From an uncultured Dehalococcoidales bacterium (lineage in GTDB: Bacteria > Chloroflexota > Dehalococcoidia > GIF9 > AB-539-J10), in NCBI GenBank assembly GCA_964625765.1, contig CAZVCS010000002.1:1-45548 (forward strand): a stretch of 45,548 bases of DNA. Reading direction: 5' to 3'. How positions within the stretch are numbered: the first letter of the stretch is position 1; each line of letters starts with the position of its first letter. Below, piece after piece: positions 12,403-45,168 of the stretch. Below the pieces are notes generated by a model that had not been told where the DNA came from, made no database searches, and worked only from the letters and a program-made list of their open reading frames with translations. The translations under genes were made by a program, and so were the position numbers.

Positions 12403-12461
12403 GGGGTCGACGTCGAGGCGCGTATCTCTCGGGTCGCGAGGGGATGGGCAGGAGGCACTCG

Positions 12462-12941: not shown

Positions 12942-13017
12942 CCTCCCTGGGCCATCGAAGCATGCGGCCCGGGCGTTGCGAGCACGACTTCTTGCCGGCG
13001 TACTATACTTTGGCTTT

Positions 13018-19585: not shown

Positions 19586-19590
19586 TTCTT

Positions 19591-21092
<1,502 letters not shown>

Positions 21093-24604: not shown

Positions 24605-25601
24605 CGAGCATGCGTTCGATGTTGTGGAAGTTCTGGTCGAGCCTGTGGTCGGTGATACGGTCCTGGGGAAAGTTGTAGGTACGGATCTTCTCTGAGCGGT
24701 CGCCGGTTCCGACCTGGCTGCGCCTGTCGCGGTCCTGCTTGTCCAGCACCTCCCGGTTCTTCAGGTCATACAGGCGGGCTCGCAGAACCGCCATTGCCTT
24801 GATGCGGTTCTTCAACTGCGAGCGCTCGTCCTGGCATACCGAGACGATGCCGGTGGGAATGTGGGTCAGACGTACTGCCGTTGCCACCTTGTTCACGTTC
24901 TGGCCGCCGGCGCCCCCCGAATGGAATATGTCGGTCCTGATATCCTCGGGGTTGATGTCTATCTCGACTTCCTCCGCCTGAGGCAGTACGGCGACCGTGG
25001 CTGCGGACGTGTGTATCCTTCCTGACGCTTCCGTCAGCGGCACCCGTTGCACACGGTGCACGCCCCTTTCATATTTGAGGCGGCTGAACGCCCCAGCGCC
25101 CCGGACCTCGAAGATAATCTCCTTGAAGCCTTTTGCGCCGCTGAGGGTGTTGTCCACGACCTCCAGGTCCCAGCCCTGTCTCTGCGCATACCGGGAATAC
25201 ATACGGAAAAGGTCGGCGGCAAAGAGCGAGGCTTCCTCGCCTCCGGTGCCCGCGCGAATCTCGACGATGACGTCCTTGCTATCGTTGGGGTCTGTCTCCA
25301 CGAGGAACTGGTGCAGACCGGCCTCGGACGCCGCGTGGCGCGCCTCGACGGCAGCCAGCTCTTCGCGGACGATGTGGCGCATCTCAGGGTCGGTCGCTTC
25401 ATGCAGCAAGCCGCGCACCTCTTCGAGTTCATGCTCCACCGCAAGGTAGCTGGCGTACGCGTGCGCCGCGTCCTCAAGCGCGGCATGTTCTCGCGCGAGG
25501 GATTGAAGCCGAGAGGGGTTCGTCGCGACGGCGGGGTCCGCCATCTGCTGTTCTATCTCGCGGTACCGCGAGAGCATGTTGCTAAGCTTCTCGTAGGCCA
25601 T
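24534..25601 (-). CDS. prfA: peptide chain release factor 1
   Basis: 355 aa. GGQ motif [12 protein letters not shown] and the RF1-type tripeptide region [17 protein letters not shown] (PxT). Confidence 0.96.
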
Positions 25602-25683
25602 GAGGACACTCCCCGGAATCGAAAGCGGACTGTAGTATACAGCACGAAGGAGGCCTGTGCCTCCGCAGGCAGAACGCGGGCTT

Positions 25684-26247
25684 CTAGTCGCCGTGCTGGA
25701 GGTCGAGAGACTGAAGGGCGACCTGATACGCCCGGAGCGTGCTCGAATCGTACAGGACGAAAGTTACGAGCCGCACAGGCTCCGGCTTGCCGCGCAGGAA
25801 GCTCAGCACCACTCGGAGCGCCGTGCCGGCCGCCTGCTGCACCGGGTAGCCATAGGCTCCGGTGCTGATGGAGGGAAATGCGACGGAGGCGAGCCCGAGC
25901 TCTCGGGCGAGCAGCAGAGACTCGCGATATGCGCTCGCCAGAATCTCCGGCTCCCCGTGGATTCCACCGCCCCAGATAGGTCCGACCGTGTGAATGACAT
26001 ACCTGGCATGAAGACGTCCGGCCGTGGTGGCGACCGCGCGACCCGGAGGCAGGGGCCCGGCAACAGCAACTATGGACCGGCACTCCTCCAGGATGGCAGG
26101 ACCGCCGGCGCGGTGAATGGCTCCATCGACGCCTCCTCCCCCGAGAAGTCCGGAGTTCGCTGCGTTCACAATGGCGTCCGCGGCCACCGCCGTGATATCC
26201 CCCTGCACGAGCTCCAGCGCTCCGCGACCTGTCTGTACCGTCATCAT
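25684..26247 (-). CDS. macro-domain protein (O-acetyl-ADP-ribose deacetylase-like)
   Basis: 187 aa. [35 protein letters not shown] and [10 protein letters not shown] are classic MacroD/YmdB-type motifs. Confidence 0.85.
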
Positions 26248-26336
26248 TCGATTGTCCGGTCTCCGTCCTGCGCCGCGTACGTTGCGCGCCGGCCGGGCAG
26301 CACGACAAGCATCGCGCCACCGTCACGGCTACGTCG

Positions 26337-26365
26337 TTGCCGCTCGACCCGACACCGAATATAAT
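26337..26365 (+). promoter_or_regulatory. sigma-70-type promoter of the 4-hydroxybutyryl-CoA dehydratase gene
   Basis: TTGCCG (26337-26342), 17-nt spacer, TATAAT (26360-26365). SD AAGGAGGA lies 8 nt before the ATG at 26410. Confidence 0.6.
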
Positions 26366-26409
26366 ACGGCACTGGAGCGCGCCACGGCGCATAAGGAGGA
26401 AGGCACCCA

Positions 26410-27879
26410 ATGGCTCTTAAGACTGCTCAACAGTACATCGACAGCCTGCGCAAGCTGAAGTCCGATGTGTGGCTCTTCGGCGAGAGAATCGAGAACTTCG
26501 TCGACCACCCGGTTGTTCGTCCCTCCATTAACGCTATCGCGTTGAGCTACAAGGTAGCTCACGAGCCGGAGTACGAGGACCTGGCAACGACGACGTCCAC
26601 GCTCACCGGAGAGAAGATCAACCGCTTCACTTCCTTGTTCATGAGTACGGATGACCTGGTCAAGAAGGTGAAGCTGCAGCGCGTGCTGGGACAGCGCACC
26701 GGATGCTGCTTTCAGCGCTGCGTCGGCATGGATGCCATCAACGCGGTCTTCAGCACGTCCTTTGAGACAGATGAGAAGTACGGCACCTCGTACCATGCTC
26801 GCTTCAGGGAGTGGCTGAAGTACATCCAGCAGAATGACCTGTGCGTCCAGGGGGCCATGACCGACGTGAAGGGCGACAGGGGACTGAGGCCGAGCCAGCA
26901 GCCCGACCCCGACATGTTCGTCCATGTCGTCGAGCGGCGCAAGGATGGTATCGTCATCCGCGGCGCGAAGGCCCATCAGACCGGCAGCGTCAACTCGCAC
27001 GAGATGCTCATCATGCCGACCCTTACCATGAGGGAAGGCGATGAGGACTACGCCGTGTGCTGTGCGCTGCCGTCTGACTCGAAGGGCGTGCACTTCATCT
27101 ATGGGCGTCAGTCCTGTGACAAGCGCAAGCTGGAAGAGGGCGACATCGACGTTGGCAACTACCAGTTCGGCGGACAGGAGGCTCTCACGGTGCTCGACGA
27201 CGTCTTCGTGCCATGGAGCAGGGTCTTCATGTGCGGGGAAGTTGACTTCTCGGGCATGGTGGTCGAGCGGTTTGCGAGCTATCACCGCCAGAGCTACGGT
27301 GGCTGCAAGCCTGGCATAGGCGATGTGTTGGTGGGCGCCACTGCCGCGATGACCGACTACAACAATGTGGCCAAGGCGGGGCACGTGCGTGATAAGATCG
27401 CGGAGATGAATCACCTCATCGAGACGCTGCACGCGTGTGGTCTGGCTGCGTCCACCCAGGGAACGAAGACGAAGGCGGGGAACTACCAGCCGGATATCCT
27501 GCTCGCCAACGTCTGCAAGATGAATGTGACCCGGTACCCTTACGAGCTGTGCCGTCTCGCCGAGGACCTCGCCGGCGGCGCCCTGGTCACCATTCCTTCG
27601 GAGTGTGACCTTCGCAGCCCCGAGATCGGCAAGTACGTGCAGAAGTACTTCAAGGGTGCGGGCACGGTCTCGGCTGAGGAGCGCCTGCGCATGCTGTCGC
27701 TCATCAACAGCATGACGTTCGGCCTGACTGCACCGAGCTACCGCACGGAGTCTATGCACGGCGCCGGCTCGCCGCAGGCGCAGAAGGTCATGATTGAGCG
27801 CCAGTCGAACATGGAGAACAAGAAGAAGCTGGCGCGCAGGCTGGCCGGTATCGACGAGCGCGAGAAGCTCACCGACTGA
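26410..27879 (+). CDS. abfD: 4-hydroxybutyryl-CoA dehydratase / vinylacetyl-CoA isomerase (AbfD family)
   Basis: 489 aa, HpaB/AbfD fold. Candidate [4Fe-4S] ligands fall at the positions described for Clostridium AbfD: C100-x3-C104 (GCCFQRCVG), then H292 and C299 (YHRQSYGGCK). Confidence 0.8.
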   Translation: MALKTAQQYIDSLRKLKSDVWLFGERIENFVDHPVVRPSINAIALSYKVAHEPEYEDLATTTSTLTGEKINRFTSLFMSTDDLVKKVKLQRVLGQRTGCCFQRCVGMDAINAVFSTSFETDEKYGTSYHARFREWLKYIQQNDLCVQGAMTDVKGDRGLRPSQQPDPDMFVHVVERRKDGIVIRGAKAHQTGSVNSHEMLIMPTLTMREGDEDYAVCCALPSDSKGVHFIYGRQSCDKRKLEEGDIDVGNYQFGGQEALTVLDDVFVPWSRVFMCGEVDFSGMVVERFASYHRQSYGGCKPGIGDVLVGATAAMTDYNNVAKAGHVRDKIAEMNHLIETLHACGLAASTQGTKTKAGNYQPDILLANVCKMNVTRYPYELCRLAEDLAGGALVTIPSECDLRSPEIGKYVQKYFKGAGTVSAEERLRMLSLINSMTFGLTAPSYRTESMHGAGSPQAQKVMIERQSNMENKKKLARRLAGIDEREKLTD

Positions 27880-33930: not shown

Positions 33931-34161
33931 CTAGCCCTGACCGGCGGTGGCGCTCCCGTCCTCCGTTGCCTTTCCGCGCCGCGTCTTCTTCACGGGCGGC
34001 GAACCATTCCGAAGCTCGGTGAACCGTCCTATCGGCGCAGAGTGGACGCTGCCGTCAGCTCGCTCGAAGAGCATCTTGGGCAGACCGTCCTGGTCGACGA
34101 AGATGTCGAGCACCTCGACCTCCTCTTCCTCGGTCCGATTCGGATGGTACTGCGCCTTCAT
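33931..34161 (-). CDS. small hypothetical protein (76 aa)
   Basis: MKAQYHPNRTEEEEVEVLDIF... Its ATG overlaps the TGA stop of the upstream HD gene (ATGA at 34158-34161). The frame has high G/C third-position bias. It is the C-terminal part of track ORF 33931..34407. Confidence 0.5.
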   Translation of the reverse strand: MKAQYHPNRTEEEEVEVLDIFVDQDGLPKMLFERADGSVHSAPIGRFTELRNGSPPVKKTRRGKATEDGSATAGQG

Positions 34162-35402
34162 TCCTGACGCACCGGTGATGCCGCGACGCCGTCCATGTGC
34201 GCGCGGCCCCCGCTTCCTGAGAACCACGAGTGGAGCGAGATCAGGTCGACCCCTGCGACGGCGCCTGACGCGTACTTCAGCGCAATCGCATTCATGGCCC
34301 GCTCCAGCTCGGGCGACGAAATGCCGTTCTCGCGCGCAAGGTACGCTTCCATGAAGGCCGCAAGGTCGTCGACCGCCTTCACAAGCTCGCCGTCGCGCGG
34401 GTTGCACTCATCGCTGTTGTAACACTGATCCATCTGGCAGGCGGAAGCATGGACGGTGGCGCCGCTGGCGGATGCGACGTTGCGGAACTCATCTTCCGTG
34501 AAGAGTCGGAGGTCGGCGTGCCAACCTTCCGGCACAAGCGGATAGACCTTCTCCTCCATCTCATCGCGCTCGTACGTCTTGATGAGCGTACTCAGACCCT
34601 TCACCGAGTGTTTGACCGGCGAGATGATGTCCCTGGTGAGAGCCTCGGGCAGGTCGTGAAAGAGGCCGGTGAAGTAGTTGTTCACGCACCGGCGAGGGCA
34701 GCAGCCCCGTTCAAGCGAAAGGAGGTACGACACCATGGCGACTATCAGCATGTGGCCGAGGACGGACGTCCGTGGAATCCGGTGGACATGGCTCCAACGG
34801 ACCTGAAAGCGCAGCAGACCACAGAGGTCTACAAAGCTACGCAGATTGGACCTCAGCAGCAACTCCCGTAGACCGGGCAGGTCGAGATACGTCTCCTGTT
34901 GCGAATCGAGGCGAGCGCCGATGCGGTCGATCTCGTGCCCGTCGGGGTTCGCCCGGCGGATGATGTCGAACTCCCACCGGGTGGCGAAGAAATGAGCCGC
35001 GTGCAGCACACGCTGGCAGTGAATCTCCTCAGCATCGGAGAAGTAGCGCCTGAACCGTTCGCAGAAACCGGCGCCCAGGGGCGCGATCGCGTTCTCCAGT
35101 TCGGAGTACACCCAGTCGTTCAGTTCCTGATACCTGACGGGGTCCTCCTTTATCTTGTAGAAGACCTGGGGCTTGAGGTCCGTCAGCACCAGGCGCTGCA
35201 AGTACTCGAAGATCCCGCCTTCGATGAGCGCGGGCCAGTCCATCCCCCTCGATTGCTGCTCGAACTTGCCGAGCACATACGCCACGACCATCTTGTGCGC
35301 CTGCTTGTCAAGCTCGGTCAGCTCGACCGGGCGTATCTGGTCGTTCCAGCGCTGCATGTATGCCGCGTTGAACAGCCGGATGAGGAGCTCTCGTGTCACC
35401 AT
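34158..35402 (-). CDS. HD-domain hydrolase (YfbR-like, apparently tandem HD-like repeats)
   Basis: 414 aa from MVTRELLIRLFNAAYMQRWND... A canonical unit is present (RFQVRWSHVHRIPRTSVLGHML ... LFHDLPEALTRDI). An N-terminal unit has RW...H but LTDL in place of HD. The upstream part of the 722-aa track ORF is antisense to the MBL gene, so I excluded it. Confidence 0.7.
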   Translation of the reverse strand: MVTRELLIRLFNAAYMQRWNDQIRPVELTELDKQAHKMVVAYVLGKFEQQSRGMDWPALIEGGIFEYLQRLVLTDLKPQVFYKIKEDPVRYQELNDWVYSELENAIAPLGAGFCERFRRYFSDAEEIHCQRVLHAAHFFATRWEFDIIRRANPDGHEIDRIGARLDSQQETYLDLPGLRELLLRSNLRSFVDLCGLLRFQVRWSHVHRIPRTSVLGHMLIVAMVSYLLSLERGCCPRRCVNNYFTGLFHDLPEALTRDIISPVKHSVKGLSTLIKTYERDEMEEKVYPLVPEGWHADLRLFTEDEFRNVASASGATVHASACQMDQCYNSDECNPRDGELVKAVDDLAAFMEAYLARENGISSPELERAMNAIALKYASGAVAGVDLISLHSWFSGSGGRAHMDGVAASPVRQE

Positions 35403-35500
35403 CGAACAGGGGGCCTTGTAGAAGCTTCGTCGCCGCATTATACACCGGCTCCCGGACAGTGCATGCCGTCTGCAGACTGGCAGGGCGTCGCTCGTCGTCA

Positions 35501-35509
35501 TGGTAGAAT
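35501..35509 (+). promoter_or_regulatory. extended -10 element upstream of the MBL-fold gene
   Basis: TGGTAGAAT, 43 nt upstream of the ATG at 35553. The divergent HD gene has TATAAT on the reverse strand at 35437-35442. Confidence 0.5.
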
Positions 35510-35552
35510 GTCTGGCCCTTGTCTCGAACCGAGAAGACCAGGAGGAGTTGGC

Positions 35553-36455
35553 ATGTGGCTGAAAGAGCCCTGCAAGGTGAACCAGTCTATAGACTTCATA
35601 GGCACGCATGAGTTGTGCTCGTATCTCGTGCGAGGCGACGACATACTCATCGTCGGTGGCAGCATGAGCCATGCGACTCCAGCGCTGAGACGCCAGCTCG
35701 ACGAAATGGCTCTTGACCCCGACCGCGTCAAGTACGCAGTCGTAACTCACTCGCATTTCGACCATTGTGGGGCTATTCCCTACTTCCGGGAGCGCTTTCC
35801 CAGGATGCAGGTGCTGGGAACCTCGGCAAGCGCGGAAGCACTGTCCAAGCCGAAGGTGGCCGCATATAACGCACGGGCCAATGACGATGCCGCCCAGCAG
35901 GCATGTGTTCTCGACCAGTGCCTGCATCTGTGCGATTGTCCGTCGGCACTGGCAATCGACCGCGTGGTCGCCGACGGTGAGCGGATAGACCTCGGCCGCG
36001 GTGTCTCGGTCGAGTTCTACGAAGTTCCCGGGCACAGCAAGTGCTGCGTCGCAACGTGGGTTCCTTCGTGCAGGGCGCTGTTCCCCACGGACACCAGCCC
36101 CCAGCCGGTTTCGAGTCATCTCGATCTGTCGTTTCCTTCGGCGCAGTTCGATTTCGACCGGTATGTCGCGTCGCTGCGGCGTCTGCTCGAGTTCGATGTC
36201 GACATCCTCGGAATGGACCACTACGGCGTGCTGCTGCATGAACAGGCCGGTGAATACCTGCGGCTGGGACTCGAGAAGACGCTGTCGTTCGGAGACGAGG
36301 TGCGTCGCAGATATGAAGAGAGTCACGACCTCGATGAGGTATCGCGCCAGTTCGCCCGTGAGGGACTTGCCAAGGTCCGCCTGCCGTTCATCACGGATGA
36401 GTTGATGTTCATCATCACGCGGGCGATGATCAAGTCCATCGTATCGGCGGACTGA
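35553..36455 (+). CDS. metallo-beta-lactamase-fold hydrolase
   Basis: 300 aa from MWLKEPCKV... SD GGAGGAG lies 5 nt upstream. HxHxDH motif THSHFDHCG and a later EVPGHS motif are present. Confidence 0.8.
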   Translation: MWLKEPCKVNQSIDFIGTHELCSYLVRGDDILIVGGSMSHATPALRRQLDEMALDPDRVKYAVVTHSHFDHCGAIPYFRERFPRMQVLGTSASAEALSKPKVAAYNARANDDAAQQACVLDQCLHLCDCPSALAIDRVVADGERIDLGRGVSVEFYEVPGHSKCCVATWVPSCRALFPTDTSPQPVSSHLDLSFPSAQFDFDRYVASLRRLLEFDVDILGMDHYGVLLHEQAGEYLRLGLEKTLSFGDEVRRRYEESHDLDEVSRQFAREGLAKVRLPFITDELMFIITRAMIKSIVSAD

Positions 36456-36526: not shown

Positions 36527-36823
36527 CTACCTGCTGCGGAGCCGACCGAAGCAGTCACTGCAGTACACCGGGCGACCATCGCGCGGTTCGAATGGCACTT
36601 CGCAATCCTTGCCGCACTGAGCACAGGTCGCACTGTACATCTGCCTGCCCTGGAATCCGTCTCCACCGTCGGTCCGCTGAGACCTCCGGTTCCGGCGGCA
36701 GGTAAGGCATCGCTTGGGCTCGTTGGTGTAGCCCTTGGACGCGAAGAACTCCTGCTCCTCAGCAGTGAACACGAATTCCGCGCCGCAATCTGCACACTGA
36801 AGCGTCTTGTCTGCGAAACTCAC
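36527..36823 (-). CDS. zinc-ribbon protein (CxxC-x17-CxxC domain family)
   Basis: 98 aa. First knuckle pair CADC...CLTC, second CAQC-x17-CSDC. GTG start with SD GGAGG 7 nt upstream. Confidence 0.8.
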   Translation of the reverse strand: MSFADKTLQCADCGAEFVFTAEEQEFFASKGYTNEPKRCLTCRRNRRSQRTDGGDGFQGRQMYSATCAQCGKDCEVPFEPRDGRPVYCSDCFGRLRSR

Positions 36824-38034: not shown

Positions 38035-38703
38035 TTACTTGACCCTGATCCGTATCACGATGTCACCCTGGCAGCCATCCGTGACCCGGCACGCGTTTGT
38101 CAGCTTGACGATGCTTCCCGTCTTCACTCCGGCCGGCACCGTCACCTCCAGCCTGCGGCCATTCCTCGTGAGGCGCTTGCGCGTACCTTTCTCGGCTTCC
38201 TCGGCGGTGACGGTGAGCTCGTACCTGACGGTCTTCGATGGCTCCTCTGGCGGCCTGCCACCGAACAAGTCATCAAGGTTGAAGGCTCTGGTTCCCGCTC
38301 TCCCAGAGCGGCCTGCGCCAGCCTTGCCGAGATTCCCGAACGAAACCCTGTAGCCCCTCCCTCTCAACGCATCCCCGAATATCCCGTCCAGGAAACTGAG
38401 ATTCAGGCCCAGGCCTCCGAAGTCGCGCATGACGCCCTCGAAGGTAGACCGGGTGCTGCTGCTGCCGAAGATGTCGCCCAGGTCACCGGCGGTGCCAAAC
38501 TGGTCGTACTGCTTGCGCTTGTCCGGGTCGCCCAGTACCCCATACGCCTCATTGATCTCTTTGAAGCGCTCGGTGGCCTCTTTCTCCTTGCCGGGGTTGC
38601 GATCCGGGTGGTACTTCATCGCCAGCCGGCGGTACGCCTTCTTGATATCGGTGTCGGTGGCGGAGCGGCTGACTCCGAGCGTCTCGTAGTAGTCTCTGGC
38701 CAT
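38035..38703 (-). CDS. J-domain co-chaperone (DnaJ/CbpA-like, no zinc-finger domain)
   Basis: 222 aa from [37 protein letters not shown] (HPD motif). A G/F-like linker and one DnaJ C-terminal-like beta domain follow. No CxxCxGxG repeats are present. Confidence 0.85.
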
Positions 38704-38710
38704 ACGAGGT

Positions 38711-38719
38711 ATTGTAGCA
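38711..38719 (-). promoter_or_regulatory. extended -10 element 7 nt upstream of the J-protein ATG (leaderless candidate)
   Basis: Reverse strand TGCTACAAT-acctcgt-ATG, with no SD. Confidence 0.5.
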
Positions 38720-38911
38720 TCGAGCGCAGGCCCCACAATACGAGAGGTAGACACTCGCCCCGGAGGGCTCCGGTTATCGGGCGGAGGAATACCACATCTG
38801 GGTGGCAAGCGGCTCCGGTGTGCTGCATCGGGCGCCGGCCCCGACGCGACGGCGGTGCCGCACGGCCCCATCCGGCGCCAGTGCTTCGACGACAAGGGGT
38901 ATCGAGCTGCT

Positions 38912-39604
38912 TCAGCGTGGGCCGAAGAGTGCTCTGCCGACCCGTACCATCGTTGCGCCTTCCTCAATGGCTACGTCGTACGAGTCGCTCGTGCCCATCG
39001 AGAGATGCTGCATCGCACCGCCGGTGATGTCCGTAGCCTTGAGTCGCTCGAACAGGCGCCTGGTGTTCTGGAAGTACGGGCGGTACTGCTCGGGCTCCGA
39101 TAGAAGGGGCCCCATCGTCATCAGGCCCGCAACCTGAAGATGCGTCAATCGGGAGACGTCGTGCACGAGCCGTTCTGCCGCCTCGGGATCAACGCCTGAC
39201 TTCTGCCGCTCGCTCGCGCTGTTGACCTCGATCAGCACGGGAAGGCGCTTCCCGATGGCGGCGGCCACTCGGTCGACGCGCACCGCGAGCTCGAACGAGT
39301 CGAGGCTCTGAACCATGTCGAACAGCCTCATATTGGCCGCACGCACGTCATGGGGGCGCAGACGTCCGATGAGATGCACTCGGGCGATGCCGGTCAGATG
39401 CGGCGCCACACGGCGCGCATCCACCATGTAGTTCTGGCCGACATCGCGGAGCCCGGCGTTGACGGCCTCCAGGACCTCCTCGATCGAACGCCCCTTGCAC
39501 ACGGCAACCACGGTTACGTGCGCTGGAATCCGCCCAAGAATCAGACGAGTTCGCGCTGCAATGTCGGACACGCTGGCACCGCTTCCTCGAAGCCTCCCTC
39601 GCAT
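38912..39604 (-). CDS. yggS: YggS-family pyridoxal-phosphate homeostasis protein
   Basis: 230 aa from MRGRLRG... Motifs VVAVCKGRS (PLP lysine), [16 protein letters not shown] and [23 protein letters not shown]. An extended -10, TGCTACCAT, lies on the reverse strand at 39621-39629. Confidence 0.85.
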
Positions 39605-39647: not shown

Positions 39648-39656
39648 TGGTATAAT
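39648..39656 (+). promoter_or_regulatory. extended -10 element upstream of the GT2 operon
   Basis: TGGTATAAT. The ATG at 39655 used by the ORF track lies inside this box, so I prefer the next ATG at 39688 as the start. Confidence 0.5.
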
Positions 39657-39687
39657 GGCACGGCAGCCCGACTCACTCGACCAGCCT

Positions 39688-40389
39688 ATGGACACGAGCA
39701 GCAGTCCGCAGACAGCGACTATCGTGGTCGTGATTCCCGCCCTGAATGAGGCATCCACCATCGGCATGGTGCTCGACGAGATCCCTGTCGACGAGTTGTC
39801 CAACCAGGGCTACCGTACGCGAGTGCTGGTGGTGGACAACGGCAGCACCGATGGGACCTCCGATGTCGCCTTGGGGCGGCAGGCGGAAGTCGTCGTAGAG
39901 CCGCTGCGAGGCAAGGGCAGGGCGATGCGGAGGGCGTTTCAGGAAGCCAGGGGAGACTACGTCTTCATGCTGGATGGCGATGCCACGTATCCGGCAACAC
40001 ATATCCCGGAGATGGTGGCTCTGCTGGCGGATGGCTGCGACGTTGTCACCGGTTCACGACTGAGGGGCAGGCGGGCCCCTGGCTCCATCAGTGCGCTCAA
40101 CGTGGTTGGCAACCACCTGCTGACATGGCTCGCCTGTCTGCTCTACGGCCGGAGGATCAGCGATCTCTGCACCGGGTACTGGGGCTTCCGCGCCGCCGTG
40201 CTGCCGCTTCTCCACCTTCGCGCAAGCGGATTCAATCTCGAGGCCGAGCTGTTCGCCGAGGTCGTCCGAAACCACCTTTCGCTGCGTGAAGTCCCCATCA
40301 ACTACCGTCGCCGGCCTACGCCCACCAAGCTGCGGTCGCTTCGCGACGGAGTTCGGATTGCCCGGACGCTCTTCACGAAGAGGTTCTGA
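39688..40389 (+). CDS. GT2 glycosyltransferase, polyprenyl/dolichyl-phosphate sugar synthase-like (DPM1/Alg5/AglK-like)
   Basis: 233 aa. IVVVIPALNEASTIG, VLVVDNGSTDGTSDVA, GKGRAM, and the DXD-type motif FMLDGDATY. No TM segment is evident. Confidence 0.78.
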   Translation: MDTSSSPQTATIVVVIPALNEASTIGMVLDEIPVDELSNQGYRTRVLVVDNGSTDGTSDVALGRQAEVVVEPLRGKGRAMRRAFQEARGDYVFMLDGDATYPATHIPEMVALLADGCDVVTGSRLRGRRAPGSISALNVVGNHLLTWLACLLYGRRISDLCTGYWGFRAAVLPLLHLRASGFNLEAELFAEVVRNHLSLREVPINYRRRPTPTKLRSLRDGVRIARTLFTKRF

Positions 40390-40393
40390 CGCG

Positions 40394-41407
40394 ATGGCTG
40401 ACGTGGGTGGCGATACGGCCGCGGAGCCGGCAGGCGACGGAGGTGTGCGAGGCTGCAGCATCTCTCTCGTCATACCGTGTTACAGCCTTGAACGCTCGGC
40501 CGACCTGCTTGCGCTGCTCGAGAGCATCGAAAGGCAGACCGCGCCCATCGATGAGTTGCTCGTCGTCGTTCAGAAGTCCGAGCCATTGGTGGCTCTTGTT
40601 CGACAGCGGCTGACTGCGATGCAACTCCCCGAGGCCCGCGCCATCTACCTTGATGCCGAGCCGCGCGTCACGGTGGCGCGGAACCACGCGGTGCGCCAGG
40701 CCCGGGGAGATGTCATCGCGTTCGCCGACGACGATTCAGTCCTGGCCGAGAGTTGGTGTAGCGAGACGAGGCGGTTCTACGCCGAGTTCCCGGAGGCGGT
40801 GGGGGCGGCGGGGGCGATATTGCCGCTGTGGGACACACTATCGATGGCCTGGTTTCCGCGAGAACTGTACTGGATGCTGTCCTGCACCTACTGGCGCTCG
40901 GAGCGACCTGAGGTCGTCCGCAATGGGTACGGCGCCAACATGTCCTTCCGCCGTGCCGCATTCGATAACGGACGGTTATTCAGCGAGACTCTCGGCATCT
41001 CAGGGTGGGGTGGGAGTGGATGGCACGGCGTTGGAGGGGAGGAACCGGAGTTCGCGAGCCGCGTCACCAGGGAGACCGGTGGTCTGATCTACTTCGTACC
41101 GGACATAATCGCATGGCATCGGGTGCGCCGGTACCGGCTGGCCCTGCCTGCGCTCGCGCGCCGTGCCTACTGGGAAGGGCGGTTCAAGGCTGCCTTTCGC
41201 AGAGAGGGAACAGGGTCCGAGAGACCGCTCGAGACGGAACGCCAACTGCTTGCGATGCTTCCGCGGAGCGGTGCTTCCCGCCTGCGTCAGTTTGGTTCGA
41301 CTCCGTTGCTCGCCTTGCGTCAGCAGGGCGTCGTGTGCTTTTCACTCGCCTGCGTGGCAGCCGGTTTCGTAGAGGGAACGGCAAGGCGCACTCGCATCCG
41401 GCACTGA
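40394..41407 (+). CDS. GT2 glycosyltransferase
   Basis: 337 aa from MADVGGD..., starting 4 nt after the previous stop. ISLVIPCYSLERSADLL, DXD motif AFADDDSV, and NGYGANMSFRR. The upstream part of track ORF 40286..41407 overlaps the previous gene. Confidence 0.78.
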   Translation: MADVGGDTAAEPAGDGGVRGCSISLVIPCYSLERSADLLALLESIERQTAPIDELLVVVQKSEPLVALVRQRLTAMQLPEARAIYLDAEPRVTVARNHAVRQARGDVIAFADDDSVLAESWCSETRRFYAEFPEAVGAAGAILPLWDTLSMAWFPRELYWMLSCTYWRSERPEVVRNGYGANMSFRRAAFDNGRLFSETLGISGWGGSGWHGVGGEEPEFASRVTRETGGLIYFVPDIIAWHRVRRYRLALPALARRAYWEGRFKAAFRREGTGSERPLETERQLLAMLPRSGASRLRQFGSTPLLALRQQGVVCFSLACVAAGFVEGTARRTRIRH

Positions 41408-41499: not shown

Positions 41500-42783
41500 C
41501 TACCGTGCGTCCCATGCGCCTCTGCGCAGTGCCAGGATCAGCACCGCACTGACGCCGTGCAGGATCAGGTACACCAACCCGACGGCCTCCAGCCCGCCGG
41601 TCCGGATGAGCCACCAGCTCAGCCCGATGATGGCAATCGTCAGAGCTGTTCTCCACGCAAGCACTTCATTGAGTTGACCGCGCACCCGGAGCGCGGCGAA
41701 GTGCACGCGCTCGATGGTCATCGGGAGACTGGTCACGGCAAGGATGCGCAACAGATCGAGAGAACGTTCAGAGTAGCCCGCGCCGAAAGTGAAGAGCACC
41801 CATCCTCCGAAGAGCAACAGGAGCAAGCATGCCGGGATCAGAAGGGCGTAGCTCATTATCAATGCCTGGCTCACGTGTCGTCGAAGCGCACGTTTGTCGT
41901 AGGAAGCTTCAGCGAAGAGCGACTGGGCCACAGACCCGGGGATGAGGTACAGCACAGTGGCCACCGCCCACGCAACGTAGAAGAAGCCGTTCTCCTCGGG
42001 GCCGAGCACCGTGATGACTATAAGAGGCATGGCATACCGTGGCATCGTGGTGACCAGCGTGATGGCATAGCTCAGACCCGAGAAGCCCCAGGCCCTCCGA
42101 ACCAGCCTGGCGCCAAAGGCTGGCTTGAACGCGTAGCCTGGTATGGCGCGCGGTACGAGCACAAGAAGTGCAACCACTGCGGCAGCCGCCGTAGCGATGC
42201 CCCAGCTCGCCACGATGCCGAAGGCATGGAAGTGGCTGACGAAGAGCAGGGGAAGCCCGACCTTCACGAGGCTGAAAGCCGTGTCCTTGATCACCAGCAG
42301 GTGCGACGTGCGGCGGGCGACGAGTGCACCGCCAGCGGTGCTGGAGACGTTCGCAGCTACGCAGAAGCACAGAAACGCCGCCAGGAACACGGGCTGGCGC
42401 GCGACGAAGCTGATCTCCGTCGACCACGTTGCCAAACCTGCGGCGCTGACCAGCGAGACAACAAGCGCGGCGATTGCCGAATACGTCAGGCACGTGTTGA
42501 GCAACTCGACGGGAGTCTCAGAGCGCGAAAGAAATCGCACCAGAAACGAGTCAAGGCCGATATGTGCGGCAAGGGCAACAAGTGAGATGGTCGAGATGAT
42601 TGCCGAGCTGTAGCCGACCTCGGCCTCTGTGTAGAAGCGCGCCACCACCACCCAGAAGAAGAACCCGAGCAGGGCCATGCCCGCCTGGGAAAGCATGATG
42701 AAGAAGGCGTTGGAGTAGAGCGAAGAGCGGGCACTGTGGCGGACGAAGTCCACATAGCGGGTCAGCTTGCCGTTGTCTTGCAC
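41500..42783 (-). CDS. MOP-superfamily oligosaccharide/polysaccharide flippase (Wzx/AglR-like)
   Basis: 427 aa and multi-spanning (about 12 hydrophobic segments), with the composition and organisation of Polysacc_synt family flippases. GTG start with GGAG 9 nt upstream. It begins 42 nt downstream of the OST stop. Confidence 0.75.
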   Translation of the reverse strand: MQDNGKLTRYVDFVRHSARSSLYSNAFFIMLSQAGMALLGFFFWVVVARFYTEAEVGYSSAIISTISLVALAAHIGLDSFLVRFLSRSETPVELLNTCLTYSAIAALVVSLVSAAGLATWSTEISFVARQPVFLAAFLCFCVAANVSSTAGGALVARRTSHLLVIKDTAFSLVKVGLPLLFVSHFHAFGIVASWGIATAAAAVVALLVLVPRAIPGYAFKPAFGARLVRRAWGFSGLSYAITLVTTMPRYAMPLIVITVLGPEENGFFYVAWAVATVLYLIPGSVAQSLFAEASYDKRALRRHVSQALIMSYALLIPACLLLLLFGGWVLFTFGAGYSERSLDLLRILAVTSLPMTIERVHFAALRVRGQLNEVLAWRTALTIAIIGLSWWLIRTGGLEAVGLVYLILHGVSAVLILALRRGAWDAR

Positions 42784-42825: not shown

Positions 42826-45168
42826 TCACACGCCTGCAACCTGGAAGACCCTCACTGCCGGGATGTCACGTCCACTGACGTCGGTCGTTTCGTGCGACTC
42901 GAACACGAGGGTGTACTGTGCCAGGGCATCCAGTGGTACGCACGACACAGACGGGTCCGAACTCACCAGCCTCAAGTGGTCGCTGCCATCGTTCTGCATG
43001 AATGCCAGCGCCTCGTCGTAAGAAGGGAACCGCTCGAGACCGACGATGAGTTTCTCCGCTCCGGGGAGGCCCCCGCTGTCTTCGTACCGGATGACGCGAA
43101 AGTTCTCCGGCGCCGCAGCCTTCCCTGCCAGACACTGCAAACGCACGAGCGTGCTCTGAAAGTACGCCGGGTAATACAGGACGATGCTCTCGAGTCCCGA
43201 CCCGGAGGTTCGTTGCGAGTAGATGTCGAAGTACTCGCCGTGCTCCTCTCCCACCCACGCAGCCACCGCGTTGAACGTCGCGACGCTGGTGCGTGCATCG
43301 GTGACGACGTAGCGCGAGTCGAGCGACTTGAGCATCTCGATTCCCTCAGCCTCGGACGTCGACAGGAAGTACCGGGCCGCCGTCTTCGCTCCCTCCTGAA
43401 AAGGATTGGCGATAGGGATGCGATGGCTCACGCGTGTTATCCAGTGGCCGTAGTCCCACCATGCCATGACGCTCCACGCCTGCTCAGGGTAGTCGTAATC
43501 TTCGCGCGCGGGAGGCGGGTCGTACAACCGGTAGTAGCTTCCTGGCTCGAGCGGGTCGGGAGTGTTGTCTCGCAGCCACTCCAGGGTTTCGTACCAGCCT
43601 GCTGTCATGGTCGCGCGCTCAACGGCGAAATTGCGGGCCATGCTCAGGCATGGCGCGCCGATGGTCACGATGAACGCCGTGACGAGCGCCGCGACAAGGG
43701 TCGCTGCACCACGTCTCTCCGCTTGCCGGGCACGCGCCGTCCTGCGAGCCGCCTTGCTGCCGGTGGCGGCGGCAGCCTTGACACTCCGTGCGAGTGATTG
43801 GACACGCGACTGGACGTAGTCGCTACCCCAGATCCAGGCTGCAAGCAATCCCGTCAGGATGGCCGCACTAACAGAGTAGTAGTAGCCGAACCGGCGCTGC
43901 AGCAGAACCGCCAACAGCATACAGAGGCTCCACACCACGAAGAGCGTGACGTCGTTCCCGTGAGGGGCGCGCCGCGAGCGCAGCAGAAGAACGAGAGCCA
44001 GAATCGATGCTGGAAGCACGGTGACGAAGTTCGTCCACGCGACGCGCAGCGTGAAGTGCCCCCCCGGCAGAAAGAGTGGGTGCATCTCGGTGATGGTGAG
44101 ACCGGTCCCGGTCGGCACCAGGAAGTCAATCGCACTTCGCGCGTACTGCAGCACAGCCGGCGCGACCAGCGCGATGGCACAGAGACAGAGCAGGACGAGG
44201 CTGCACAGCGCTATCAGGAGCCTTCTCGGCGACCACTGGCGACGACGGGCAAGTACGCCCAGTCCCTTCAGGGCCGCCGGAGCCGCGATTGTCGCAGTCA
44301 GGGCGGCAATGTAGAGCGCCGGCATCCAGTGAGTAGCAATGAGCGGACTGACCATCAGACCGCCGATCAGCGTTGCGGTCGAACAGACCACCACCACGTC
44401 ATCGGTGCCGGAGCCGCGCACGTAGCTGTGTACTGAGCGTACGACCGTGTAGGCCAGTATGACGGCGAGCAACAGCAGGCCGCCGCGCCAGCCCACAAGA
44501 TAGAGCCCGAGCGAAACGCCGGACAGACAGGAGTAGAGCAGGGTGCGCCGGGCCGAACGTACTCCTCGAGTGTGGAAGCTATCCAGTGTCACGTTCTCGG
44601 CGCGGGCGGCTCGCGTGGCGAGTAGCATGAACAGCAGAGTCAGGGTTGAGAAGAGGGCCTCGGTCATGTGGTGGTCGGTGAATCCGAAGAGCGACCGCGA
44701 AAGGAACTCTCCGGGCATTGTTGCCAGCACGAGAGCGGCGACGGCTCCCGCGACGATACCGCCGAGGCGTCGCGCGATGAAGTACGCCGGCACAATGGTG
44801 AGCGTTCCTGCCAGCGCCGGATACAGAGCGCCGGCCATGTCCACGGCGTGAACCGAGGGGTTGAGTCCCCCGATGAGCATAGACGTAATGGCAATGAGCC
44901 ACCGGGTGAGGGGGTGGAACGGGGGTTCGACTCCGTGAGGATAGAAGGTGTACGGGTCGAACGCAGTCGTGTGTGGGAAATTCGCGAGGAGGTTGTCCAC
45001 CAGTCGCATGTGGTACCAGCCGTCGAACTCGCGGAACCACACGTTGCCGTCGACAACGACGTTCGGATAGGGCCACGCGATGCGAACAGCCAGCGCGATG
45101 GCCACGCAGATGCCGATGACCATCAGGGCAGCCACGGAGTCAGAGGACGTCAGGCGATTGTGCTGCAT
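42826..45168 (-). CDS. STT3/AglB/PglB-family oligosaccharyltransferase (GT-C fold, CAZy GT66), archaeal AglB-like motif set
   Basis: 780 aa. The N-terminal ~520 aa are polytopic membrane and the C-terminal ~260 aa are soluble. All catalytic hallmarks are present in order: EFD (res 47-49, nt 45022-45030), FGFTDHH (D165/H167, nt 44668-44676), TITE = TIXE (res 358-361, nt 44086-44097), and WWDYGHWI (res 570-577; WWDYG at nt 43447-43461). Confidence 0.9.
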   Translation of the reverse strand: MQHNRLTSSDSVAALMVIGICVAIALAVRIAWPYPNVVVDGNVWFREFDGWYHMRLVDNLLANFPHTTAFDPYTFYPHGVEPPFHPLTRWLIAITSMLIGGLNPSVHAVDMAGALYPALAGTLTIVPAYFIARRLGGIVAGAVAALVLATMPGEFLSRSLFGFTDHHMTEALFSTLTLLFMLLATRAARAENVTLDSFHTRGVRSARRTLLYSCLSGVSLGLYLVGWRGGLLLLAVILAYTVVRSVHSYVRGSGTDDVVVVCSTATLIGGLMVSPLIATHWMPALYIAALTATIAAPAALKGLGVLARRRQWSPRRLLIALCSLVLLCLCAIALVAPAVLQYARSAIDFLVPTGTGLTITEMHPLFLPGGHFTLRVAWTNFVTVLPASILALVLLLRSRRAPHGNDVTLFVVWSLCMLLAVLLQRRFGYYYSVSAAILTGLLAAWIWGSDYVQSRVQSLARSVKAAAATGSKAARRTARARQAERRGAATLVAALVTAFIVTIGAPCLSMARNFAVERATMTAGWYETLEWLRDNTPDPLEPGSYYRLYDPPPAREDYDYPEQAWSVMAWWDYGHWITRVSHRIPIANPFQEGAKTAARYFLSTSEAEGIEMLKSLDSRYVVTDARTSVATFNAVAAWVGEEHGEYFDIYSQRTSGSGLESIVLYYPAYFQSTLVRLQCLAGKAAAPENFRVIRYEDSGGLPGAEKLIVGLERFPSYDEALAFMQNDGSDHLRLVSSDPSVSCVPLDALAQYTLVFESHETTDVSGRDIPAVRVFQVAGV

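Follow-up and report, generated by a model that had tools for sequence, protein, structure and literature searches.

The window, a stretch of 45,548 nucleotides from an uncultured Dehalococcoidales bacterium, carries a gene that probably encodes a single-subunit oligosaccharyltransferase (OST) of the AglB-L type found in archaea (GT66, TIGR04154) and that has been part of a Dehalococcoidia (Chloroflexota) chromosome for a long time. An earlier note, made from the sequence alone, had described an archaeal-type AglB inside a bacterial genome, and this description is borne out by HMM and PDB searches, the predicted fold, neighbour-joining (NJ) trees and the bacterial character of the window. The OST was apparently acquired long ago from methane-cycling archaea. 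In textbook accounts, PglB of Campylobacterota and some Desulfovibrionales is the sole OST credited with N-glycosylation in bacteria. A literature search found no paper tying Dehalococcoid* or Chloroflexota to AglB, STT3 or OST, and the NCBI pipeline already names these proteins in MAGs. An OST with clear AglB-L ancestry, a catalytic site that looks intact and archaeal-looking partner genes has a wide distribution and a long history in Dehalococcoidia, a class abundant in the subsurface and in sediments.

Table 1. Features of the window, with their positions, strands and the basis of each assignment.
Feature	Position	Strand	Basis or remark
AglB-type OST gene, 780 aa	42826..45168	-	ORF, Pfam, NCBIfam, AfAglB-L match, AF2, Foldseek
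First acidic motif, E47-F48-D49, external loop 1	45022..45030	-	D49 aligned to AfAglB-L D47, a metal ligand
Second metal-binding motif, D165-H166-H167 (EL2)	44668..44676	-	Aligned to AfAglB-L D161-H162-H163
TIXE motif, T358-I359-T360-E361, external loop 5	44086..44097	-	E361 corresponds to AfAglB-L E360 (T-I-A-E360)
R426	43891..43893	-	Aligned to AfAglB-L R426, near the phosphate of dolichol-phosphate
WWDYG, residues 570-574	43447..43461	-	Part of the pocket for the sequon +2 Ser/Thr
DK-motif position, residues 624-635, DARTSVATFNAV	43264..43299	-	R626, T631 and V635 versus AfAglB-L E613, K618 and M622
Wzx/AglR-like polysaccharide-biosynthesis flippase, 427 aa	41500..42783	-	Pfam Polysacc_synt and Polysacc_synt_3; 43 bp downstream of the OST
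GT2 glycosyltransferase, AglG-like	40286..41407	+	Best NCBIfam match haloarchaeal AglG (NF041394), below cut-off
GT2 polyprenyl-phosphate hexosyltransferase-like, AglJ-like	39655..40389	+	Best NCBIfam match AglJ (TIGR04182), below cut-off
Bacterial 16S rRNA gene, host marker on the contig	19590..21091	+	Rfam SSU_rRNA_bacteria, 1487 bits, full length

Family assignment and fold

The window OST is AglB-L-like by curated HMM, PDB sequence search, fold and tree. It scores 566.9 bits with the NCBIfam model TIGR04154 (curated cut-off 450), with residues 16-775 aligned to model positions 2-738 of 831, and it matches the Pfam families PF02516 (STT3; 7.7e-32, 111.7 bits versus a cut-off of 24.5) and PF22627 (AglB_core-like; 3.1e-25, 89.1 bits versus 27). 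AglB-L of A. fulgidus (AfAglB-L; AF_0380; PDB 3WAJ, 3WAK, 5GMY, 7E9S) belongs to the same TIGR04154 subfamily. A single-sequence phmmer search aligned AfAglB-L (3WAJ/5GMY) to OST residues 16-639 with E = 6e-62, and the family profile of the OST, searched against the PDB, found AfAglB-L with E = 3.4e-147 over profile positions 13-781; STT3 structures were weaker (1e-19 to 1e-10). The AF2 model (pLDDT 90.8, pTM 0.90) features a multi-pass transmembrane domain and a periplasmic globular domain with the OST fold. AfAglB-L is its top Foldseek match (E 1e-34, TM 0.75), eukaryotic STT3 and PglB reach TM 0.56-0.64 and about 0.51, and the first 19 matches are all OST catalytic subunits. Identity to AfAglB-L is nevertheless low, 20-25% in the Foldseek alignments, and the window OST stops about 90 residues earlier at its C-terminal end.

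The TIGR04154 name, 'oligosaccharyl transferase, archaeosortase A system-associated', refers to co-occurrence with archaeosortase A and PGF-CTERM proteins. When the window and the ±10 kb around 58 bacterial loci were scanned with a regex, no PGF-CTERM-like ORF turned up, and an archaeal locus yielded one. Since the scan detected none at the bacterial loci, the 'archaeosortase A-associated' part of the name is unsupported here. The window also departs from the archaeal (Euryarchaeota) host range of the family, with a bacterial 16S rRNA gene and housekeeping genes on the same sequence.

Catalytic and sequon-binding motifs

Judged by alignment, all of the AfAglB-L catalytic-site residues are kept in the window OST (D49, D165, H167, E361 and R426), as are WWDYG and TIXE. 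The AfAglB-L fragment used for the comparison was rebuilt from the phmmer alignment, and the published numbering (D47, D161, H163, E360 and R426) was recovered. In AfAglB-L, D47, D161 and H163 are direct metal ligands and E360 acts through two waters (PMC8342417). The three motifs that had been read from the letters, E47-F48-D49, D165-H166-H167 and T358-I359-T360-E361, agree with the computed positions, and the span given for them, 44086-45030, runs exactly from TITE to EFD. Their numbering had been called almost identical to that of AfAglB-L, and the offsets are +2, +4, +4 and +1. An alignment detaching D165 and H167 from the metal ligands, named as a refutation, was not obtained, as the two residues align to D161 and H163. 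WWDYG was absent from that first list of motifs. Both proteins have TIXE, WWDYGHWI and IANPFQ, and TIXE and WWDYG serve to hold the sequon peptide (PMC8342417).

D49, D165, E361 and R426 are invariant in the bacterial clade of 69 sequences (E361 and R426 in 69/69, D165 in 68/68), H167 is found in 67 of 68 non-gap sequences, the DHH motif is invariant in alignment A1, and WWDYG is essentially invariant. The E47 position is variable (G in 26, E in 19 and S in 9 sequences), and the first motif is G-N-D in AfAglB-L versus E-F-D in the window OST. Within this motif D49 alone appears to matter, E47 not being conserved. An N-glycosylating function is predicted for the window OST from this conservation.

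The earlier note took DxH to be the archaeal version of the second motif. This is correct for one euryarchaeal subfamily but not for Archaea in general, according to the parts of the Lombard 2016 alignment (PMC4973528) covered here. In these parts the second motif is a PglB-like DTD in Methanobacteriales and DTP in Methanococcales, an eukaryote-like D-x-E in Asgard (Loki) and Thermoproteus, K-S-E in Nitrosopumilus and R-H-E in Korarchaeum; DHH is confined to AglBs of the Archaeoglobi/Methanomicrobia type, and Natronomonas has GHH. Since DxH occurs in only some archaeal AglBs, the motif diagnoses a subfamily and not a domain.

The DK-motif position is where the window OST departs from AfAglB-L, which has a variant DK motif (E613...K618xxxM622). 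By sequence alignment, the segment from D624 to V635 appears to match neither the DK motif (DxxKxxx[MI], variant E<>Kxxx[MIP]) nor the MI motif (MxxIxxx[IVW]), the second signature position having neither Lys nor Ile. The Lys is missing in 10/10 sequences of the window's subclade and kept in 50/69 members of the bacterial clade, most of which retain K...M, and the position is Ile in 5/24 archaeal members. The DK-motif Lys forms part of the wall of the +2 Ser/Thr pocket; substituting it is lethal in yeast STT3 and lowers activity in P. furiosus AglB-L. Because the window's subclade is without the signature Glu and Lys, acceptor specificity or efficiency may differ.

Host and genomic residence

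The window is bacterial and collinear with Dehalococcoidia MAG contigs. Its 16S rRNA gene has perfect matches to two probe sequences directed at Chloroflexi, and it carries genes for SecA, HrcA-GrpE-DnaK, DnaJ, RNase Y, YmdB, RF1/PrmC and FabF. The composition of the OST gene had been judged by eye to be not aberrant, and the computed values show a host-like gene: GC is 63.6% versus 62.9% for the window, GC3 is 0.778 versus a mean of 0.784, and the RSCU correlation of 0.923 ranks 23rd among 30 genes. Since codon usage is fully host-like, a transfer from archaea to bacteria would be old. The order OST, flippase, GT2, YggS-like protein, DnaJ, GTPase, zinc-finger protein and HD protein is also found on two Dehalococcoidia MAG contigs (L001 and L036), despite their OSTs being just 46% identical to that of the window. 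The exact gene arrangement is kept solely in the window's subclade.

Relatives and phylogeny

At least 562 relatives of the OST occur in species-representative genomes, and the best 80 of them include about 55 from Dehalococcoidia/Chloroflexota MAGs. The bacterial clade to which the window OST belongs takes in more than 55 Chloroflexota species, a few Phycisphaerae and one Verrucomicrobiota sequence. Among the matches listed, relatives lie on long bacterial contigs and on a closed 3.6-Mb Phycisphaerales chromosome, and the window OST is 30-33% identical to the archaeal proteins versus up to 76% to members of the bacterial clade. The extremes of that clade are 31-35% identical to each other. 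The nearest archaeal relatives, at 30-34% identity, are the AglBs of Methanophagales (ANME-1), Methanocellales and Methanosarcinales (for example loci L047-L080; M. mazei YP_007489348), which have FLSRSLLGFTDHHVAE, TIxE and WWDYGHWI in common with the bacterial clade. Most exceed the bacterial proteins in length (732-968 aa, the majority above 820, versus about 780), and they have QNRF at a site that reads QRRF in most bacterial proteins. Most of them also have an insertion after NPFQxG, where the window OST is without the 'IGxxxxxxPG' segment of AfAglB-L. The missing segment of about 10 residues was considered as a bacterial synapomorphy and dropped, as one ANME-1 protein (L054) and the deeper sequences P0072 and P0073 are likewise without it.

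The trees are bootstrapped neighbour-joining trees computed from simple distances. In the 773-column tree, 95/100 bootstraps united the bacteria in one clade and 86/100 joined them to ANME-1, a sister relation conditional on AfAglB-L or P0072 as the root. The sequences P0069-P0076 form long, unstable branches, and P0073 wanders between the 'bacterial' clade and Natronomonas from tree to tree; in the final 60 bootstraps, from which six long-branch sequences were removed, the two groupings were recovered in 60/60 and 56/60. A merged tree of 263 columns, built from our own alignment and the trimmed Lombard alignment, adds PglB, STT3 and other AglBs. In this tree the bacterial clade fell inside the DHH clade in 83/100 bootstraps without eight unstable or long-branch sequences and in 24/100 with them, and the internal nodes are weak when distant outgroups are present (24-65% support). 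The merged tree cleanly excludes PglB and the Geobacter group: in two runs the bacterial clade joined PglB in 0/100 bootstraps each, which disposes of the placement in the PglB clade that had been named as a refutation, and joined the Geobacter group in 1/100 and 0/100. The bacterial clade nests in the euryarchaeal DHH-type AglB group, with ANME-1 as its best sister.

Transfer of AglB from archaea to bacteria 'at least twice' is already published (PMC4973528). The AglB homologues of Geobacter, Chloracidobacterium, Stigmatella and Anaeromyxobacter (Lombard 2016, PMC4973528) are also bacterial, have a D-H/Q-H second motif and lie inside the euryarchaeal clade, which makes them a precedent for such a transfer. 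Unlike the window OST, those seen in the covered parts of that alignment have a degenerate WWDYG (CDWTPG, SDWGLG, YFNLG, RWDWG). They pair with another archaeal paralogue (M. mazei YP_007490855, Methanocella YP_003357778). Because the Geobacter group goes with a different archaeal paralogue and only rarely with the Dehalococcoidia clade, the latter looks like a further, independent transfer. Its history would consist of one ancient transfer from a Methanomicrobia-type archaeon, with ANME-1/Methanophagales as the best sister, to an ancestor within Dehalococcoidia, and then of vertical descent, during which the gene was passed on a few times to Phycisphaerae and Verrucomicrobiota.

Alternative explanations

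The earlier note had offered either an ancient transfer or a deep bacterial AglB lineage, and transfer is favoured by the position of the bacterial clade within a single euryarchaeal subfamily. Vertical descent from an early bacterial or pre-domain ancestor is very improbable, even though the bacterial clade is large, monophyletic and, by the divergence of its extremes, old, the composition of the gene is fully host-like, and an unrooted tree shows bacteria and archaea simply as two groups. Rooting with AfAglB-L or P0072 surrounds the clade with sequences of Methanosarcinales, Methanocellales and ANME-1, and none of the final bootstraps of the 773-column tree (0/60) recovered the ingroup archaea as a group without the bacteria. 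Eukaryotic rooting places it in one euryarchaeal subfamily, with the other archaeal AglBs, STT3 and PglB outside. The bacterial range is moreover narrow among the best 80 of the at least 562 relatives, being essentially one class with scattered Phycisphaerae and Verrucomicrobiota, and D. mccartyi 195 and Dehalogenimonas, both in the Lombard genome set, have no sequence in the parts of the N-OST alignment searched. Fusion of an archaeal fragment to a bacterial contig during assembly or binning might be suspected from the archaeal family name, the archaeal source of the nearest solved structure and the origin of most relatives in metagenome bins. This reading is effectively refuted, since the same 45.5-kb sequence carries the bacterial 16S rRNA gene and many bacteria-specific genes, the GC, GC3 and codon usage of the OST gene are indistinguishable from those of its neighbours, and the same gene order runs into housekeeping genes on independent Dehalococcoidia contigs. 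The relatives on long bacterial contigs and a closed chromosome, and the closer identity to these than to the archaeal matches listed, likewise speak against it.

A transferred AglB could also have kept the GT-C/OST fold and lost canonical protein N-glycosylation, acting on another acceptor or sequon or hydrolysing the lipid-linked oligosaccharide (LLO) to free glycans, which is unlikely. Such a change would fit the replacement, in the subclade, of the Lys that helps form the +2 pocket, of the Glu and of the Met (T631, R626 and V635), and PF18079, a C-terminal domain recorded in four archaeal or archaeal-like matches, is recorded in none of the bacterial clade. OSTs also hydrolyse LLO, an activity changed by DK-motif mutations (PMC8342417). 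However, both metal motifs and R426 are strictly conserved together with TIXE and WWDYG, whose role is to hold the sequon peptide, and the Lys position varies naturally in archaea while most of the bacterial clade keeps K...M. The bacterial host and the single-subunit enzyme would suit a PglB-type OST of the Campylobacter/Desulfovibrio lineage, and Campylobacter PglB (PDB 3RCE, 5OGL, 6GXC) resembles the window OST in being a single-subunit bacterial OST with a GT-C fold, WWDYG and TIXE. This identification is refuted: no PglB structure in the PDB was matched at E <= 10 by either the OST sequence or its family profile, PglB ranked under all STT3s in the fold search, and the second motif is DHH and not the D-T-D seen for PglB in the covered sequences, which also have the MI and DGGK motifs that the window OST is without. 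PglB lies elsewhere in the tree, with AglBs of Methanococcales and of the Methanobacteriales type. It is also thought to derive from an archaeal gene (PMC4973528), and its donors are Und-PP-linked (PMC8342417).

Neighbouring genes and putative pathway

The acquired AglB-type OST may be the last step of a pathway encoded around it. Assembly of a short glycan would take place at the cytoplasmic face, where the AglJ-like GT2 would load the first hexose onto a polyprenyl monophosphate carrier and the AglG-like GT2 would add the next sugar; the Wzx/AglR-like flippase would then turn the lipid-linked glycan outwards across the membrane. The OST would hold a divalent metal by D49, D165 and H167, with E361 acting through water, keep an Asn-X-Ser/Thr segment against TIXE and WWDYG, and transfer the glycan en bloc to the Asn amide. 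The acceptors would be secreted or surface proteins, those of the envelope or S-layer being the most plausible ones. Cultured Dehalococcoidia are known to be without peptidoglycan and to have an archaeal-looking S-layer.

A possible and still tentative reading is that Dehalococcoidia have a complete archaeal-style N-glycosylation system, with a polyprenyl-monophosphate carrier, AglJ/AglG-like glycosyltransferases, a Wzx/AglR-like flippase and an AglB-type OST. It would be a third, independent bacterial system, captured from ANME-1-like archaea of the same anoxic sediments and decorating envelope proteins, and the window's subclade would have a new 'Thr-type' +2 pocket, neither Lys- nor Ile-type, with altered acceptor specificity. 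If active, the OST would add a new system to the N-glycosylation systems of bacteria and be a concrete example of machinery for envelope biogenesis that has crossed between domains, and it might partly account for the archaeal-like cell surface of Dehalococcoidia. Additionally, it would supply new single-subunit OSTs for glyco-engineering, including natural Ser/Thr-pocket variants.

The window has a set of genes side by side like that of the Haloferax volcanii Agl pathway (AglJ, AglG, AglR and AglB), but its GT2 proteins score far under the cut-offs of the corresponding models. The AglJ-like GT2 reaches 179.8 bits versus 325 with TIGR04182, covering model positions 2-216 of 293, and is without the C-terminal membrane segment of the model; the AglG-like GT2 reaches 134.6 bits versus 440 with the AglG (glucosyl-dolichyl phosphate glucuronosyltransferase) model. 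Since these scores are under equivalog cut-offs, the neighbours resemble AglJ and AglG but cannot be named as such. As its domain does not begin until residue 59, the AglG-like gene probably starts downstream of 40286. The homologue search with the AglJ-like GT2 is silent on an archaeal origin of the partner genes because Chloroflexota proteins (54-99% identity) saturate the best 120 of its 1614 matches.

Sugar-nucleotide and glycosyltransferase genes are recurrent neighbours of the OST across the bacterial loci, and conservation of the neighbourhood is modest, with each neighbour family found in 9-14 of 58 loci and within subclades only. A homologue of the AglJ-like GT2 is encoded close to the OST at 10 bacterial and 4 archaeal loci. 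In 9 bacterial loci the flippase, which has no NCBIfam match, adjoins the OST, with a median gap of 46 bp between the two, and its counterpart in one of the loci (L038) is 76% identical.

Active-site motifs and the predicted metal site

The AglB-type oligosaccharyltransferase (OST) and the features discussed with it are listed in the table. The motifs EFD, DHH and TITE that the earlier note had read are all present at the residues it gave, and their coordinates show that its range, 44086-45030, is the exact span from TITE to EFD; the WWDYG motif was absent from its list. Pfam recognizes an STT3 domain (PF02516, 7.7e-32) and the AglB core domain (PF22627, 3.1e-25). A phmmer search of all PDB sequences aligned OST residues 16-639 with Archaeoglobus fulgidus AglB-L (AfAglB-L; 3WAJ/5GMY) with E = 6e-62. 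In this alignment '..gndpwyy..' of AfAglB-L is paired with '..efdgwyh..' of the OST, 'gfndhhiwea' with 'gftdhhmtea', and 'ltiaev' with 'ltitem'. Rebuilding AfAglB-L residues 15-626 from the alignment placed D47, H81, D161, H163, E360 and R426 at their literature positions, and the metal-site residues that the earlier note gave for AfAglB-L (D47, D161, H163 and E360) are correct, D47, D161 and H163 being direct metal ligands (PMC8342417). D165 and H167 of the OST fall on the metal ligands D161 and H163, and by alignment D49, D165, H167 and E361 are the equivalents of D47, D161, H163 and E360, with offsets of +2, +4, +4 and +1. Glu360 belongs to the TIXE motif of AfAglB-L (Thr-Ile-Ala-Glu) and binds the metal via two waters (Taguchi et al. 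2021, PMC8342417). The 24 sequences of alignment A1 all share D49, D165, H166, H167, E170, E361 and R426. Among 69 bacterial clade members, D49, D165, E361 and R426 show no variation and H167 is kept in 67 of 68, while E47 is not conserved.

Features of the OST locus and the 16S rRNA gene in the window
Feature	Position	Strand	Evidence
OST ORF, 780 aa	42826-45168	-	translation
E47-F48-D49, within FREFDGWYHMR	45022-45030	-	translation of OST
D165-H166-H167, within FGFTDHHMTE	44668-44676	-	translation of OST
T358-I359-T360-E361	44086-44097	-	translation of OST
W570-W-D-Y-G574	43447-43461	-	translation of OST
DK-motif position, OST residues 624-635	43264-43299	-	sequence alignment
Polysacc_synt (Wzx-type) flippase, 43 bp downstream of OST, same strand	41500-42783	-	Pfam
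GT2, best NCBIfam model AglG (NF041394)	40286-41407	+	134.6 bits (equivalog cut-off 440)
GT2, best NCBIfam model AglJ (TIGR04182), then haloarchaeal dolichyl-phosphate hexose transferase model	39655-40389	+	179.8 bits (equivalog cut-off 325)
Bacterial 16S rRNA gene, full-length	19590-21091	+	1487 bits

The earlier note had taken DxH for the archaeal version of the second motif. In the parts of the N-OST alignment of Lombard 2016 (PMC4973528) that were searched, D-H-H occurs only in Archaeoglobus, Ferroglobus, Methanoculleus, Methanocella and Methanosarcina. The same parts give D-T-D for PglB and also for Methanobacteriales, D-T-P for Methanocaldococcus, D-N-E for eukaryotes and Lokiarchaeum, D-D-E for Thermoproteus, K-S-E for Nitrosopumilus, R-H-E for Korarchaeum and G-H-H for Natronomonas. 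DxH therefore marks a single subfamily of euryarchaeal AglBs and not all Archaea; the conclusion drawn from it stands, but the motif by itself would not tell the domains apart.

Family and fold

The OST scores 566.9 bits over residues 16-775 (cut-off 450) against TIGR04154, the curated NCBIfam model 'oligosaccharyl transferase, archaeosortase A system-associated'. A regex scan found no PGF-CTERM-type protein within +/-10 kb of 58 bacterial OST loci, and the archaeosortase A label comes with the name of the family, not from evidence at the bacterial loci. In the PDB, the family profile matches AfAglB-L at 3.4e-147 over nearly the full length, STT3s at 1e-19 to 1e-10 and Pyrococcus furiosus AglB at 0.005, and does not match PglB even at E <= 10. 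AlphaFold2, run with alignment A1, gave a confident model (pLDDT 90.8, pTM 0.90), for which Foldseek puts AfAglB-L at the top (E 1e-34, TM 0.75), followed by eukaryotic STT3 (TM 0.56-0.64) and PglB (TM about 0.51). The OST is an AglB-L-type enzyme, not PglB.

Bacterial host and residence of the gene

The genome carrying the OST is bacterial. The same 45.5-kb sequence holds, besides the 16S rRNA gene, SecA, HrcA-GrpE-DnaK, DnaJ, ValRS, CoaBC, type III pantothenate kinase, CorA, RNase Y, YmdB, RF1, PrmC and FabF. Two Chloroflexi-directed 16S probe sequences, presumably GNSB-941 and CFX1223, match perfectly at the expected places, which serves as a lead and not a test. The nearest OST homologues are named Dehalococcoidia by NCBI, the closest named one at 68% identity. 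Beginning at the OST, two contigs of Dehalococcoidia MAGs (L001 and L036) are collinear with the window in the order OST, flippase, GT2(s), YggS-like, DnaJ, TGS-GTPase, treble-clef zinc-finger and HD-domain protein; translated identity is 53-91% for the housekeeping neighbours, whereas it is only 46% for the OST. As the earlier note had judged by eye, composition is not aberrant: the OST has a GC content of 63.6% (window 62.9%) and a GC3 of 0.778 (gene mean 0.784 +/- 0.035), and its RSCU values correlate with those of the remaining genes at 0.923 (rank 23 of 30). An assembly chimera as the source of the OST is excluded by the bacterial markers on the same sequence, the shared synteny and the host-like composition, and the OST is a long-standing resident of its present chromosomal context.

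The 16S gene stands alone between CorA (18464-19420, -) upstream and RNase Y (21355-22878, +), which starts 264 bp downstream. The window contains neither a 23S nor a 5S gene nor a spacer tRNA, so the arrangement is unlinked. hrcA-grpE-dnaK forms an operon-like run (7300-3812, -), and dnaJ (38035-38967, -) lies 30 kb away, adjoining the glycosylation cluster.

Distribution and phylogeny

Relatives were sought in one genome per GTDB species, and at least 562 were found. Among the best 80 are about 55 MAGs of Dehalococcoidia/Chloroflexota, a single Chloroflexia sequence, one from Verrucomicrobiota and two from Phycisphaerae, of which one lies on a closed 3.6-Mb chromosome, followed by Methanocellales, Methanosarcinales, Methanophagales (ANME-1), Methanothrix and Methanoperedens. 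The clade members outside the Chloroflexota, in Phycisphaerae, closed chromosome included, and a Verrucomicrobiota MAG (L044 (CP070685.1), L064 and L078), imply onward transfer from bacterium to bacterium.

A neighbour-joining (NJ) tree of 95 aligned sequences (773 columns, rooted on AfAglB-L) united all non-archaeal sequences in one clade (95/100 bootstraps) that is sister to ANME-1 (86/100). When six long-branch sequences of unplaced origin were left out, the bacteria were monophyletic in 60/60 replicates and grouped with ANME-1 in 56/60, and the ingroup archaea never formed a group excluding the bacteria (0/60); the outcome was the same with AfAglB-L or the deeper homologue P0072 as root. 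A second NJ tree merged the trimmed 268-column N-OST alignment from the Lombard 2016 supplement (PMC4973528) with our sequences via the shared AfAglB-L row, giving 263 columns, at which internal resolution is weak (24-65%). With a eukaryotic root, this tree puts PglB together with AglBs of the Methanococcales and Methanobacteriales type. In 83/100 bootstraps without eight unstable or long-branch sequences, and in 24/100 with them, the window's clade nests within the euryarchaeal group that carries DHH. It joined the DHH-like group of Geobacter, Chloracidobacterium, Stigmatella and Anaeromyxobacter in 1/100 and 0/100, and it never fell with PglB in either run (0/100); together with the lack of a PDB profile match, this rules out a PglB identity for the OST.

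Family model, PDB profile, fold, bacterial markers and trees thus bear out an archaeal-type AglB in a bacterial genome, as originally proposed. The gene is most probably an ancient acquisition from Methanomicrobia-type archaea. According to Lombard 2016 (PMC4973528), aglB moved 'from archaea to bacteria at least twice', and the present clade looks like a further independent transfer that extends this conclusion. D. mccartyi 195 and Dehalogenimonas belong to the genome set of that study and have no sequence in the searched parts of its N-OST alignment. The OST is a new bacterial member, in practice a whole new clade, of the known AglB-L family. No literature was found linking Dehalococcoidia or Chloroflexota with AglB, STT3 or OST; the clade is already machine-annotated in MAGs and, as far as the searchable literature shows, has been neither described nor tested.

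Clade-specific features and the +2 Ser/Thr pocket

Bacterial members are about 770-820 aa long and archaeal ones 732-968 aa, most above 820. Pfam PF18079 is recorded in four of the archaeal or archaeal-like matches and in none of the bacterial-clade matches. An 'IGxxxxxxPG' insertion of ~10 residues after NPFQxG is missing from the bacterial members; it is also missing from one ANME-1 sequence (L054) and the deeper P0072 and P0073, and is therefore not a clean marker of the clade. Of the archaeal forms, the Methanophagales AglB of L054 (310-2304) may come nearest to the donor; the other ANME-1, Methanosarcinales, Methanocellales and Methanothrix sequences and A. fulgidus carry the insertion.

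The DK-motif Lys is part of the lining of the pocket that takes up the sequon's +2 Ser/Thr (PMC3703281). AfAglB-L features a variant motif, E613<4 residues>K618xxxM622, whereas the OST has R626, T631 and V635 at these positions. All 10 sequences of its subclade (46-100% identical) have T, A or S in place of the Lys, and V occurs where AglB/STT3 have the Met. The Lys is kept in 50 of the 69 bacterial clade members, and five archaeal members have Ile. By the published criteria the predicted pocket of the OST is neither Lys-type nor Ile-type, and chiefly for this reason its canonical activity is in some doubt; judged from its residues, the subclade would have a third type of pocket. The syntenic OST of L036 (JAXGQG010000009.1, 1129-3442) is split, with only 280 aa open from the start and a switch of frame in the tblastx segments somewhere from about 1518 to 2114, and so represents a pseudogene or else an error of assembly.

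Neighbouring genes and proposed pathway

Two GT2 genes are convergent with the OST and flippase genes. Their scores are far below the equivalog cut-offs and give resemblances to AglJ and AglG, not identifications. Of the 293 positions in the AglJ model, the AglJ-like GT2 (244 aa) matches 2-216 and no more, and thus lacks the C-terminal membrane segment. Homologues of about 299 aa elsewhere (e.g. L017 5214-6113) end in a hydrophobic tail. The 3' end of the window's AglJ-like gene runs 104 nt past the start assigned mechanically to the following GT2. At 58 bacterial loci, the recurrent neighbours within 7 kb of the OST are an NDP-sugar epimerase/dehydratase (14 loci), a GT4 glycosyltransferase (11), an AglJ-like GT2 (10, plus four archaeal loci), a B12-binding radical SAM protein, a sugar nucleotidyltransferase and a flippase (nine each), and a second GT2, an RmlD-like reductase and a Gfo/Idh/MocA oxidoreductase (six each); no phosphoglycosyltransferase of the PglC/WecA kind is among them.

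The most economical reading of the locus is an archaeal-style N-glycosylation pathway, for which we infer the carrier chemistry, glycan, acceptor proteins and OST activity. The glycan would be built on a polyprenyl monophosphate, flipped, and transferred en bloc by the OST to Asn of N-X-S/T, presumably with the metal-dependent mechanism that AfAglB is established to use. In cultured Dehalococcoides peptidoglycan is absent and the wall resembles an S-layer, from which we would guess that the acceptors are envelope or S-layer proteins.

The B12-binding radical SAM protein (e.g. L033 13729-15123) also lies a few kb from the OST in two archaeal loci and could modify the pathway sugar or lipid. In a Chloroflexota homologue of 908 aa (P0064), an N-terminal DnaJ domain (PF00226) is fused to the OST. 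The window, L001 and L036 each have, in conserved synteny, a DnaJ gene some 4 kb away from the OST; this may be a coincidence.

Other genes of the window

Pfam recognizes nothing in the ORFs 12976-13689 (+), 12174-13046 (-) and 25553-26410 (-), of 237, 290 and 285 aa, and the first has no NCBIfam match either. The coding strand is ambiguous between SecA and ValRS, where 12976-13689 (+) has a gene-like GC3 of 0.83. In the 722-aa protein at 34158-36326 (-), Pfam recognizes only a C-terminal HD domain (residues 503-681), and the first ~500 residues have no match in Pfam or NCBIfam; L001 and L036 nevertheless conserve the gene in synteny (63-78% identity). The most conserved gene of the syntenic block is the double treble-clef zinc-finger gene at 36527-36823 (-), whose 98-aa product (PF13451 and PF23477) is about 90% identical in the same two loci.
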